Below, piece after piece: positions 37,191 through 38,951 of a stretch of DNA of 64,000 bases. Where the stretch lies: assembly GCF_045037415.1 (NCBI RefSeq), contig NZ_CP173438.1; one strand, written 5' to 3'. The stretch comes from Escherichia coli. Lineage in GTDB: Bacteria; Pseudomonadota; Gammaproteobacteria; Enterobacterales; Enterobacteriaceae. Made by a program: the position numbers and the translations under genes. How positions within the stretch are numbered: position 1 is the stretch's first letter; every line of letters starts with the position of its first letter. The notes beneath the pieces were generated by a model. It saw only the letters and a program-made list of their open reading frames with translations, was not told where the DNA came from and made no database searches.

Positions 37191-38951
37191 TTGACCATTA
37201 CGAAACTTGCATGGCGTGACCTGGTTCCTGATACCGATAGCTATCAGGAAATATTTGCTCAGCCACATTTGATTGACGAAAACGATCCTTTATTCAGTGA
37301 TACTCAACCGCGACTGCAATTTGCGCTGGAGCAGTTGCTGCATACGCGAGCATCCTCCTCTTTTATGCTGGCGAAGGCCCCGGAAGAGTCTGAGTATCTG
37401 AATCTTATTGCTGATGCCGCGCGTACGCTACAAAGCGATGCAGGCCAACTGGTGGGCGGTCACTATGAGGTTTCCGGCCACACCATCCGCTTACGTCACG
37501 CAGTGAGTGCAGATGATAATTTTGCGACTTTAACGCAAGTTGTCGCTGCCGACTGGGTAGAAGCAGAGCAACTCTTTGGCTGCCTGCGTCAGTTTAATGG
37601 CGATATTACCCTGCAGCCTGGTCTGGTGCATCAGGCAAATGGCGGTATTCTCATCATCTCTTTGCGTACACTGCTGGCGCAACCTCTGCTGTGGATGCGG
37701 CTGAAAAATATCGTTAACCGCGAGCGTTTTGACTGGGTTGCGTTTGATGAGTCGCGCCCTCTCCCCGTCTCTGTGCCTTCGATGCCATTGAAGCTGAAAG
37801 TCATTCTGGTAGGCGAACGCGAATCATTGGCTGATTTCCAGGAGATGGAGCCAGAGCTTTCAGAGCAGGCTATTTATAGCGAATTTGAAGATACTCTGCA
37901 GATTGTCGATGCGGAGTCAGTAAGCCAGTGGTGTCGCTGGGTGACATTTACCGCCAGACATAATCACTTACCAGCACCGGGAGCGGATGCCTGGCCGGTA
38001 CTTATCCGCGAAGCAGCACGCTACACTGGTGAACAAGAAACACTTCCGCTTAGCCCGCAGTGGATCCTCCGCCAGTGTCAAGAGGTCGCCTCCCTGTGTG
38101 ATGGCGACACCTTCTCCGGCGAGCAGCTAAACTTAATGCTACAGCAGCGTGAATGGCGCGAAGGTTTCCTCGCTGAACGCATGCAGGATGAGATCCTTCA
38201 GGAGCAAATCCTGATTGAAACCGAAGGCGAACGCATCGGGCAAATTAACGCCCTTTCGGTCATTGAATTTCCGGGTCATCCACGCGCTTTTGGCGAACCT
38301 TCTCGCATTAGCTGCGTTGTGCATATTGGCGATGGTGAATTCACCGACATCGAACGCAAAGCGGAGCTTGGCGGCAATATCCATGCGAAAGGGATGATGA
38401 TCATGCAAGCGTTCCTGATGTCGGAACTACAGCTTGAGCAACAGATCCCCTTCTCAGCATCGCTGACATTTGAGCAGTCATACAGTGAAGTGGATGGCGA
38501 TAGTGCCTCGATGGCTGAACTCTGCGCTCTGATCAGCGCCCTCGCCGATGTGCCGGTGAATCAGAGTATCGCTATCACAGGTTCAGTCGATCAGTTCGGT
38601 CGCGCCCAGCCAGTCGGTGGTTTAAATGAGAAAATCGAAGGCTTCTTTGCTATTTGCCAGCAACGTGAGTTAACGGGGAAACAAGGTGTCATTATCCCCA
38701 CTGCTAACGTTCGCCATTTAAGTCTTCACAGTGAACTGGTGAAAGCGGTAGAAGAAGGCAAATTCACCATCTGGGCAGTAGACGATGTGACTGACGCACT
38801 GCCGTTATTATTAAATCTGGTGTGGGATGGCGAAGGCCAGACGACGCTGATGCAAACCATCCAGGAACGTATCGCACAAGCATCGCAACAGGAAGGACGT
38901 CACCGTTTTCCATGGCCATTACGTTGGCTGAACTGGTTTATTCCGAACTGA
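37191..38951 (+). CDS. ycbZ: Lon-protease homologue YcbZ
   Basis: 586-aa ORF; Lon S16 proteolytic-domain signature around DGDSASMAE; no canonical Walker A seen. Confidence 0.88.

Follow-up and report, generated by a model that had tools for sequence, protein, structure and literature searches.

In a 64,000-nucleotide stretch of Escherichia coli DNA, hereafter the window, the gene ycbZ lies in a neighbourhood of matP, fabA, ompA and rmf, with matP as its divergent upstream neighbour and fabA as its co-transcribed downstream neighbour (Table 1). The open reading frame of 586 amino acids is 100% identical to the ycbZ annotated in several E. coli genomes and has exactly the annotated coordinates, so its preliminary designation as YcbZ was correct. 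matP is found upstream of ycbZ in 71 of 80 orthologous loci and fabA downstream of it in 77. The gene order matP-ycbZ-fabA is kept across four gammaproteobacterial orders. That ycbZ adjoins matP and the fabA promoter, as first described, agrees with both the annotation and the operator positions. The description also let the FadR and FabR operators overlap the 3' end of ycbZ, which is true of the first and not of the second. The sequence AACTGATCGGACTTGTT, which we take to be the FadR operator of fabA, shares six bases with ycbZ, its last codon and its stop codon, and stands in the same register to the ycbZ stop in 42 of 77 loci. The core of this operator, CTGATCGGACTTGTT, is identical to the site indicated in a Shewanella fabA probe (PMC4537474). 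The FabR box, in contrast, starts 13 bases beyond the ycbZ end, and in most Enterobacterales it is found at +15 from the first stop base.

Table 1. Genes, operators and protein segments at the ycbZ locus (positions in the window)
Feature	Position	Strand	Basis
matP, divergent upstream neighbour	36553..37005	-	annotation
ycbZ CDS, 586 codons + TGA, TTG start	37191..38951	+	ORF list; coordinates equal RefSeq CDS WP_000156502.1
fabA, co-transcribed downstream neighbour	39020..39538	+	annotation
Presumed FadR operator of fabA promoter, AACTGATCGGACTTGTT	38946..38962	.	sequence read; overlaps Asn586 codon and TGA stop
FabR box of fabA promoter, AGCGTACACGTGTTAGCT	38964..38981	.	sequence read; includes ACAnnTGTnnnnT, the core in PMC4804515
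Pseudo-AAA+ module, residues 36-340 (helix alpha0, in which Q39 is conserved; alpha/beta core of five strands; helical lid)	37296..38210	+	AlphaFold, Foldseek, Pfam
P-loop-equivalent loop A63-P-E-E-S-E-Y69-L70, replacing Walker A GxxGxGK[T]	37377..37400	+	MAFFT against long relatives with GPSGTGKT or GPEGTGKT; hhalign; model
Short beta-hairpin segment, residues 81-116, at site of LonC helical hairpin extension (HHE)	37431..37538	+	alignment, hhalign, model
Walker-B-equivalent strand N150-G-G-I-L-I-I-S157-L	37638..37664	+	ungapped alignment to MtaLonC Q306-GGYLILD313-A
Lon S16 protease domain, residues 341-547	38211..38831	+	Pfam Lon_C; PDB matches to LonC, LonB, LonA protease domains
Catalytic Ser438 codon, Asp437 before (LonB/LonC type)	38502..38504	+	aligns with MtaLonC S582
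Catalytic Lys481 codon	38631..38633	+	aligns with MtaLonC K625
LonC-type insertion 1, C489-QQR-E-L-T-G496	38655..38678	+	ungapped to MtaLonC C633-KALGLSG640
LonC-type insertion 2, L516-V-K-A-V520	38736..38750	+	ungapped to MtaLonC V660-LEAV664
C-terminal tail, residues 548-586, Trp-rich end, ribosome-arrest motif W579, L580, P585, N586	38832..38948	+	model, conservation, PMC8848927

All but one of 5426 complete E. coli genomes (5425) carry ycbZ. Its TTG is also the start in 53 of 77 orthologues under a heuristic choice of start, and the family consensus keeps the residues close behind it (L6, W8, L11, P13). Upstream of the gene a TATAAT stands at 37152-37157, and a promoter scan of this region gave no sigma-70 consensus pair. 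A scan of 36400-39900 with Rfam returned no RNA element within or adjoining ycbZ, only sub-threshold matches, which fall on the ompA/matP and fabA/rmf terminator hairpins. To count positions we used 77 orthologues from four gammaproteobacterial orders; a first homologue search had returned close Enterobacteriaceae only, which are uninformative for the N-terminus, and the diversity came from a search of representatives. Over the domains of YcbZ, including the degenerate one described below, omega runs from 0.006 to 0.15.

The C-terminal part of the protein carries the Lon S16 signature with a downstream Lys that had been read from the sequence earlier: G436-D-S438-A-S is followed by GGLNEK481, Lys standing 43 residues after Ser. 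E. coli Lon has the same 43-residue spacing (S679/K722). Asp437, Ser438 and Lys481 are invariant in 82 family members and in the 77 orthologues, in which the GDSAS and GG.NEK motifs around the dyad are likewise 100% conserved, and the Asp-Ser pair aligns with D581-S582 of Meiothermus taiwanensis LonC (MtaLonC). An Asp before the catalytic Ser is a trait of LonB and LonC (PMC9569914). Alignment also places in YcbZ both of the protease-domain insertions that are specific to LonC, their status as insertions relative to LonA and LonB being that given in PMC3391209. The first, published as CX3GLX(G/E), has the family consensus CxxRGLTG, with Glu in E. coli at the first Gly, that of GL; the second is published as phi-X2-A-phi (PMC3391209). 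Within the gene, dN is lowest over the protease domain, where omega is 0.006-0.045.

Which kind of Lon this domain belongs to was approached with profile models, as the preliminary description had proposed. Pfam recognises only a partial AAA_32 (residues 140-225, profile positions 35-124 of 133) and Lon_C (435-539), and the NCBIfam models for Lon, LonB, spore Lon, RadA and BrxL all score far below their cut-offs; YcbZ is therefore none of those equivalogs. With LonA, the protease La of E. coli, it shares the S16 protease fold, the Ser-Lys spacing and the plan of an AAA+-fused chambered protease, but LonA has a large N-terminal substrate-binding domain, canonical Walker A/B motifs, ATP-driven translocation and Pro before the Ser. 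The similarity is confined to the protease domain (E ~1e-4; whole-chain TM 0.3-0.4), where the LonA models TIGR00763 and NF008053 score 31 and 29 bits (cut-offs 608 and 891), and Asp437 precedes the Ser; we rejected this assignment. The archaeal LonB of Thermococcus onnurineus (TonLonB, PDB 3k1j) is the second-best fold match (TM 0.72-0.75) and resembles YcbZ in that its AAA module is fused directly to the protease, with no LonA N-domain and with Asp before the catalytic Ser. What sets LonB apart from YcbZ are its functional Walker A/B motifs and the transmembrane segment inserted into its AAA domain, and YcbZ reaches 86.2 bits against a LonB cut-off of 516.6 (TIGR00764). A LonB-like membrane anchor was also discarded: the highest Kyte-Doolittle mean over 19 residues is 1.54, below 1.6, and lies inside the protease core. 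BrxL, of BREX phage defence, likewise joins a Lon-related C-terminal domain to an AAA+ module; it was rejected at 9.8 bits against a cut-off of 628 (TIGR02653) and a TM of 0.27, and ycbZ belongs to the core chromosome, where no BREX genes lie beside it.

Among solved structures the closest relative is instead LonC, represented by MtaLonC and by TTC1975 of Thermus thermophilus (MEROPS S16.007; PDB 4fw9, 4fwd, 7euy, 8k8v), with E=4e-57 and about 40% identity over residues 140-547. In Foldseek the YcbZ model matches the MtaLonC crystal chains at TM 0.84/0.84 and an rmsd of 3.3 A, a closer match than either TonLonB or LonA gives. LonC was described as a subfamily in 2012, in a paper that already mentions gammaproteobacterial homologues; its experiments showed that neither MtaLonC nor TTC1975 has ATPase activity and that both can degrade unfolded substrates when ATP is absent (PMC3391209). 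MtaLonC nevertheless binds ATPgammaS at about 1:1 without hydrolysing it, and its oligomeric state and ring assembly respond to ATPgammaS or phosphate. It keeps a Walker-A-like GPPSLGKHE, including the Lys, and a Walker-B-like Asp in the motif GYLILDA (PMC3391209). Its helical hairpin extension (HHE), an insertion in the alpha/beta subdomain that distinguishes Lon subfamilies, mediates substrate recognition and chaperone activity (PMC13069640). YcbZ resembles LonC in having the Ser-Lys dyad with Asp before the Ser, together with both insertions, and in being soluble, with neither a LonA N-domain nor a membrane anchor. From its sequence, it also appears to share with LonC an AAA-like module that is fused to the protease and lacks the Walker B Glu, the sensor residues and ATPase activity; the absence of canonical Walker A/B motifs from a module that keeps the AAA+ fold fits the LonC definition, which asks for a module without canonical Walker, sensor or Arg-finger motifs.

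That fold is seen in a confident AlphaFold model (pLDDT 92.4, pTM 0.88), in which an ASCE alpha/beta core, with strands at 58-62, 117-120, 153-157, 203-208 and 228-231, is followed by the lid helices at 241-336; an AAA+ fold is further indicated by the full-length matches to LonC and LonB. The core is under purifying selection (omega 0.03-0.15), as is the module over residues 36-340 (0.04-0.15). Its nucleotide-binding motifs are gone. The preliminary description had found no canonical P-loop in the first 350 residues, and this extends to the whole protein, in which G.{4}GK[ST], [AG].{4}GK[ST], GK[ST] and K[ST] are all absent, to the six reading frames of 36901-39100, in which Walker A is absent, and to the aligned P-loop position of the orthologues, where GK[ST] occurs in 0 of 77. 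At this position the model has the strand 58-62, a loop and the helix 67-80. Aligned with long relatives, Tyr69 occupies the place of the Walker A Lys. Within the loop K62, A63, an acidic residue at 65 (72 of 77 orthologues) and Y69 (Tyr in 66 of 77) are conserved. This region is equated with the P-loop of the long forms mainly from co-linearity and the predicted fold, and hhalign is taken as supportive only: run on the N-terminus against long forms, it gives the co-linear pairs expected, at low probability (5-13%, P=0.002-0.007), among them a weak match of YcbZ 2-93 with 4-93 of a long form (P=0.007, probability 5%). Walker B has fared no better. The pattern hhhhD[DE] is absent from the protein, Walker B patterns, strict or relaxed, gave nothing in the six frames either, two matches to the looser hhh[DE][DE], WVAFDE at 182 and IWAVDD at 527, were rejected since both lie off the Walker B strand, and the Walker-B-like Asp313 of MtaLonC aligns with Ser157, a position with Asp or Glu in 0 of 77 orthologues and Ser in 59. 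The structure prediction that had been suggested as a check thus yields an AAA+ module that is intact as a fold and has lost its functional Walker A/B motifs.

The HHE, which defines LonC, is missing as well. YcbZ is 133 residues shorter than native MtaLonC (719 residues). Compared with forms of 800 aa, alignment and hhalign open a gap of about 230 residues in YcbZ, with about 18 residues in place; pairing resumes at YcbZ 112-134, opposite 323-345 of the long form, and the strands 90-95 and 98-103 form the only hairpin that the model has at this site. The Pfam model LonC_helical (PF20437) finds no match in YcbZ at E<=1, whereas the long relatives match it. These long (~800 aa) and intermediate (~650 aa) proteobacterial LonC-like proteins belong to the YcbZ family by HMMER (E ~1e-75 to 1e-95) and share its protease motifs, the alpha0 helix GQxRA/QPRL, the LFG loop and the NGG-hhhh strand. 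Unlike YcbZ, the long forms have the HHE and a LonB_AAA-LID match, and many have GxxGxGK[H/T/S] near residue 60, three of them with a canonical GK-T. An intermediate form of 658 aa, the one with readable flanks, also lies upstream of fabA and rmf; fabA was absent beside both of the long forms examined. YcbZ further differs from LonC in its extra Trp-rich C-terminal tail and in being a mesophilic, gammaproteobacterial protein in the conserved matP-ycbZ-fabA locus. Because the GPPSLGKHE remnant of MtaLonC has become APEESEYL and the Walker-B-like Asp has become Ser, nucleotide binding by YcbZ is unlikely; judged by these motifs and the reduced HHE, YcbZ is more degenerate than LonC.

To explain these results we propose that YcbZ is a Lon serine protease of the LonC lineage whose AAA+ module has turned into a pseudo-ATPase and which works without ATP on unfolded substrates, a reading that we hold with considerable confidence on the sequence and the predicted structure. 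As every nucleotide-binding motif has been lost, YcbZ probably cleaves proteins without ATP; this ATP independence is inferred for YcbZ itself, as are its protease activity, its assembly into an oligomeric ring and its class of substrates. Since the P-loop, the acidic residues of Walker B and the HHE substrate arm are lost while the alpha/beta core and the lid are kept, YcbZ would most likely act as MtaLonC and TTC1975 do. We read the AAA+ core as a structural scaffold: the pseudo-AAA+ module would most likely form the ring and an entry vestibule over the Ser438-Lys481 chamber, into which peptides and unstructured or already unfolded polypeptides would diffuse and be cleaved without ATP hydrolysis. 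Unlike MtaLonC, YcbZ would probably do so without binding a nucleotide. The earlier suggestion of a degenerate-ATPase, probably ATP-independent Lon homologue is thus supported by sequence and predicted structure. The idea of such ATP-independent relatives of Lon is already known, and YcbZ refines the described LonC family rather than coming as a surprise. Its main importance at present lies in annotation: the name of a core E. coli gene points to an ATPase, and the protein has no nucleotide-binding motif. Database labels such as "AAA family ATPase" or "putative ATP-dependent protease" mislead; on motifs and model, an ATP-independent protease related to LonC but lacking its substrate arm would be the better description of YcbZ.

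The role of YcbZ was called poorly defined, in keeping with published work that calls its function unknown; it is among the few cytoplasmic proteases of E. coli without a known substrate. Erythromycin repeatedly selects for loss of ycbZ, a loss that is reported to increase stop-codon readthrough, and the published genetics point to translation quality control. These phenotypes could instead reflect, wholly or in part, polar effects on fabA, and with it membrane lipid composition, rather than loss of a protease. RNA-seq places ycbZ and fabA in one operon with primary, internal and secondary promoters; a terminator scan found none between the two genes, terminator-like sites being no commoner than in shuffled sequences; fabA is the nearly constant downstream neighbour, and the agents that select for ycbZ loss include several to which sensitivity depends on the envelope barrier (erythromycin, EDTA, N-methyl-N-octylamine). 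We consider such polarity unlikely as the explanation, given that FadR and FabR control a separate promoter for fabA, located within and directly after the ycbZ stop, and that the selected ycbZ mutations include point mutations besides indels.

An energy supply in trans is a further alternative, in which YcbZ would supply the protease chamber and depend on another protein, an unfoldase or adaptor, to be fed folded substrates. With both ATPase motifs and the HHE missing, the argument runs, another recognition device must be needed, and a bacterial two-hybrid contact with RNase E, made by residues 565-586 and by the full-length protein, could be read this way. That contact, however, was seen with one two-hybrid clone and, for YcbZ, was not backed by a pull-down; neither of the conserved neighbours, matP and fabA, is an unfoldase and no partner gene is kept adjacent; and LonC enzymes act alone on unfolded substrates. 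Dependence on a partner thus seems improbable to us.

YcbZ might also still be regulated by a nucleotide: residues outside the canonical motifs might bind ATP, ADP or phosphate for assembly or allosteric control, or YcbZ might even hydrolyse the nucleotide slowly. The precedent is MtaLonC, which binds ATPgammaS despite having no ATPase and changes its oligomeric state with ATPgammaS or phosphate; the AAA+ core fold and lid of the YcbZ model are intact, and the loop that replaces the P-loop is conserved, so it should do something. YcbZ, however, has neither the Walker-A-like Lys nor the Walker-B-like Asp of MtaLonC. It puts two conserved acidic residues and a Tyr at the Gly and Lys positions that contact phosphate and a Ser at that of the Mg-binding Asp, with GK[ST] absent from the whole protein, and we regard nucleotide regulation as very unlikely.

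It is more improbable still that YcbZ has no peptidase function and serves purely as a scaffold or chaperone, in the manner of the Lon-like domain of RadA/Sms: many S16 members of MEROPS are non-peptidase homologues (PMC9569914), MtaLonC has a chaperone mode and residues 433-507 give a weak RadA/Sms match in NCBIfam (E=0.03), but the dyad, its Asp and the surrounding motifs are completely conserved in the 77 orthologues, omega is lower in the protease domain than elsewhere in the gene, and the chaperone activity of MtaLonC needs the HHE that YcbZ lacks.

Returning to an ATP-independent protease, YcbZ becomes more tractable once viewed as acting on unfolded or nascent-type substrates, and its gene offers two cheap leads to its role. 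One is the arrest peptide at the operon junction, in the C-terminal tail. The tail is modelled as two helices with lower pLDDT at the extreme end. It is conserved in Enterobacterales, and synonymous divergence is depressed in this region of the gene. Profiling, reporter assays and cryo-EM have shown that the ribosome arrests at Pro585/Asn586 (PMC8848927). The arrest depends on accommodation of tRNA-Asn, a queuosine-carrying tRNA, and in a tgt mutant the amount of YcbZ protein is doubled. The second lead is the conserved linkage of ycbZ to fabA. As a long shot, we envision that the YcbZ clade forms a distinct, undescribed branch, LonC-like, nucleotide-blind and devoid of the HHE, that is locked in the matP-ycbZ-fabA arrangement from Enterobacterales as far as Vibrionales and Pasteurellales; the Pro585-Asn586 arrest peptide of the protein itself would gate its output, and through the locus the state of translation or of tRNA would be linked to a protease of quality control and perhaps also to read-through transcription of fabA, the gene for unsaturated fatty acids. 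At the junction itself, the ycbZ stop codon is part of the fabA FadR operator in most genomes of the clade.

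YcbZ carries a Lon protease signature and neither a Walker A nor a Walker B motif. The S16 signature announced in the preliminary description was confirmed as G436-D-S438-A-S followed by GGLNEK481, with a Ser438-Lys481 spacing of 43 residues, as in E. coli Lon (S679/K722). The absence of Walker A is borne out too: strict and relaxed patterns are both empty, GK[ST] and even K[ST] occur nowhere in the protein, and a pattern search found no Walker B hhhhD[DE]. No P-loop was hidden in another frame (all six frames, 36901-39100). In the HMM search that had been proposed, Pfam returned only Lon_C and a partial AAA_32 match, and LonB, LonA, spore Lon, RadA and BrxL identities were rejected, NCBIfam scores falling far under all cut-offs. 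A LonB-like membrane anchor was rejected as well, no segment being hydrophobic enough. Because neither Walker A nor Walker B is present, both names in use, "AAA family ATPase" (RefSeq product name of ycbZ) and "putative ATP-dependent protease" (papers), are unfit for this protein.

In a search of all PDB sequences, MtaLonC/TTC1975, from Meiothermus taiwanensis and Thermus thermophilus, stood far ahead of any other match (E=4e-57), TonLonB came next (E = 1e-15), and the similarity of LonA proteins was confined to the protease domain. LonC is the third Lon subfamily, set up in 2012, whose members, devoid of canonical AAA+ motifs and of ATPase activity, break down unfolded substrates in an ATP-independent way; many gammaproteobacterial homologues were noted, including Klebsiella, Salmonella, Vibrio and Yersinia (PMC3391209). 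The LonC-specific protease-domain insertions, CX3GLX(G/E) and phi-X2-A-phi (PMC3391209), are matched ungapped by YcbZ C489-QQRELT-G496 and L516-VKA-V520, the sole deviation being Glu in place of one Gly. YcbZ also shares the LonB/LonC state of an Asp preceding the catalytic Ser (Asp437-Ser438; PMC9569914), and its GILIIS157L aligns with the Walker-B-like GYLILD313A of MtaLonC (PMC3391209). By sequence, fold and protease-domain insertions, YcbZ thus sits in a LonC-related clade. We call it LonC-related, not canonical LonC, because it lacks two LonC features, the Walker-A-like remnant and the helical hairpin extension (HHE).

An AlphaFold prediction drawing on 82 family members (mean pLDDT 92.4, pTM 0.88) contains a complete five-stranded alpha/beta core, a helical lid and the protease domain. 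When the PDB was searched with Foldseek, crystal chains of MtaLonC came out on top (TM 0.84 both ways; rmsd 3.3 A; only ~587 of the 732 residues of the deposited sequence modelled) and TonLonB second (TM 0.72-0.75), LonA and BrxL whole chains being far less similar. Structure prediction had been suggested as a check for an intact AAA+ module with functional Walker A/B motifs: the predicted fold is intact and the motifs are gone.

When 1.84 billion cluster representatives were searched, 3106 relatives came back, falling into three length classes: short forms (540-600 aa) aligning end to end with YcbZ, intermediate forms (about 650-720 aa) and long forms (about 790-845 aa), whose residue ~350 corresponds to YcbZ residue 140. 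Many long forms and no short form carry GxxGxGK[H/T/S] near residue 60 (canonical GK-T in three), resembling GPPSLGKHE of MtaLonC. In a joint alignment, the YcbZ segment from S57 matches long-form beta1, P-loop and alpha1 (VMGPSGTGKTTTVQKFL) column for column, with Tyr69 at the Walker A Lys position and Ala, Glu, Glu at the glycine positions, and ~230 long-form residues past this segment have no YcbZ counterpart. Profile-profile comparison gave the same co-linear order, weakly (YcbZ 2-93 with long form 4-93, P=0.007; YcbZ 112-134 with long form 323-345, P=0.002). The absent block is the HHE, a type-specific insertion that sets LonC apart and is involved in substrate recognition and chaperone activity (MtaLonC cryo-EM, PMC13069640). 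Pfam LonC_helical, which models the HHE, is matched by long relatives and not by YcbZ. Intermediate forms (~650-660 aa) keep part of an insertion at the HHE position; one of them, P0154 (locus L084), reads GFPGVDY at the P-loop position, Tyr already replacing Lys, and another, the 658-aa P0160 (L085, 3501-6515), has fabA then rmf downstream, as in E. coli. Together, the partial HHE, the Tyr-for-Lys replacement and the fabA linkage suggest stepwise reduction within a fabA-linked lineage.

That the degenerate AAA-like module is junk is ruled out by its conservation and low dN/dS. We compared 77 orthologues from Enterobacterales, Vibrionales, Pasteurellales and Orbales, taken from 80 genome loci. 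In these, Asp437, Ser438 and Lys481 are unchanged (77/77) and position 157 is never acidic (0/77). The loop replacing the P-loop has a conservation of its own: K62, A63, an acidic residue at 65 (72/77) and Tyr69 (66/77). Compared pairwise with orthologues from Escherichia, Citrobacter and other enterobacteria, ycbZ has a dN/dS of 0.03-0.15 both in the N-terminal region and in the remaining AAA-like module, with its minimum in the protease domain. These values and the loop conservation show that the module is maintained, most plausibly as a ring scaffold and entry vestibule.

The ORF has exactly the coordinates first described, with 586 codons and a TTG start. Several E. coli chromosomes match the surrounding 3.1 kb at 100% identity, and 5425/5426 complete E. 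coli genomes contain this stretch; ycbZ is a core gene, catalogued before. It adjoins matP (divergent) and fabA (same strand), as had been noted, with ompA and rmf further out. Of 80 orthologous loci, 77 have fabA directly downstream of ycbZ and 71 have matP on its upstream side, the exceptions being mostly truncated contigs or reduced symbiont genomes, and this order is kept across the same four orders though YcbZ identity drops to 36-40%. Unlike the 658-aa intermediate form P0160, the two 800-aa forms examined are not followed by fabA and rmf. Of the two operators said to overlap the ycbZ 3' end, FadR does so, covering the last codon and stop; FabR does not, its box lying 3' of the gene. In 42/77 loci, among them some Vibrio, Photobacterium, Grimontia and Salinivibrio, the FadR operator keeps this register and begins 3 bases ahead of the stop codon.

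Features of the ycbZ locus and of its product
Feature	Window (strand)	YcbZ residues	Remarks
Sub-threshold Rfam matches	36430-36560, 39558-39631		Leu_leader, istR, rimP, rnk leader
matP(-), ycbZ(+), fabA(+)	36553-39538		
In-frame TAA	37176-37178		blocks the frame; no alternative in-frame start upstream of 37191
ycbZ	37191-38951 (+)	1-586	3692-5452 in L001, the matching RefSeq locus
TTG start codon	37191-37193		
Core strands (AlphaFold)		58-62, 117-120, 153-157, 203-208, 228-231	
Strand-loop-helix (AlphaFold)		58-80	exactly at P-loop place
Small beta-hairpin (AlphaFold)		90-103	at HHE position
Partial AAA_32		140-225	profile positions 35-124 of 133
PDB alignment span		140-547	LonC 296-691
Helical lid (AlphaFold)		241-336	
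Last 39 codons	38832-38948		
C-terminal tail	38883-38948	565-586	Trp-rich, basic
Last codon and stop in FadR operator	38943-38962		AAC-TGA-TCGGACTTGTT; coincides with published arrest codons Pro585/Asn586
Asn586 codon	38946-38948	586	AAC
FadR operator of fabA	38946-38962		AACTGATCGGACTTGTT
FabR box	38964-38981		core ACAnnTGTnnnnT (PMC4804515)

The role of YcbZ was described as poorly defined, and the literature likewise calls its function uncharacterised. Gagarinova 2016, as described in PMC9508795, reports more stop-codon readthrough in a ycbZ mutant, rescued by a plasmid. Erythromycin repeatedly selects ycbZ loss-of-function alleles, and these make cells resistant to further agents as well, EDTA and norvaline among them. 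RNA-seq work has placed ycbZ and fabA in one operon, with a further promoter for fabA, and we found no terminator-like site between the two genes. That the phenotypes arise from polarity on fabA is unlikely in our judgement.

We think it quite probable that YcbZ is mechanistically an ATP-independent protease of the LonC lineage with a structural pseudo-AAA+ domain. The degenerate-ATPase reading of the preliminary description is backed by motif losses, homology, predicted fold and selection. By analogy with MtaLonC and TTC1975, YcbZ would work like LonC, as a soluble, self-compartmentalising Ser-Lys protease that cuts unstructured polypeptides without ATP. Our proposals on its activity, its oligomeric state, its independence of ATP and the class of its substrates all follow this analogy. 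The pseudo-AAA+ domain would be a structural part, probably binding no nucleotide. Dependence on a partner unfoldase seems to us quite doubtful, and non-canonical nucleotide regulation improbable. A non-peptidase role, set beside a catalytic dyad unchanged in all 77 orthologues, can be largely dismissed.

The finding is already known in outline, because ycbZ, the domains it encodes and the idea of a Lon-like protease that needs no ATP were on record before. We found no literature account of a sub-architecture lacking both HHE and P-loop, nor of the fixed YcbZ-fabA linkage, and both are modest refinements. The practical yield is a corrected ycbZ annotation and a clear experimental recipe.

tRNA-Asn(GUU) normally carries queuosine. 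Its accommodation limits a strong ribosome arrest at the final two ycbZ codons, with Pro585 in the P site and Asn586 in the A site (PMC8848927), and a tgt mutant, which lacks queuosine, has ~2-fold more YcbZ protein (PMC9508795). Through arrest at the Asn586 codon, the amount of YcbZ made could respond to Q-tRNA status. The last 39 codons show dS of 0.13-0.23 vs 0.6-1.2 elsewhere in the gene for two Escherichia orthologues, and 0.64 against >1.3 for Citrobacter; in this small sample, the low dS suggests that promoter elements upstream of fabA, or the arrest region, constrain the nucleotide sequence. The C-terminal tail is conserved in Enterobacterales and reads R[IL]KNWF in Vibrionaceae. A two-hybrid screen with RNase E, in which membrane proteins predominated, picked up residues 565-586, which may form an amphipathic or membrane-associating peptide.

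A TTG start also appears in 53/77 orthologues by a simple start-picking heuristic, which hints at conserved weak initiation. The sub-threshold Rfam matches sit on the convergent ompA/matP and fabA/rmf terminator hairpins and were rejected as generic stem-loops. In one genome labelled Escherichia coli (L004, NZ_JAATUR010000002.1), the YcbZ protein is 96% identical to ours with dS ~0.57, a divergence unusual for E. coli; the genome may be mislabelled or belong to a cryptic Escherichia clade.
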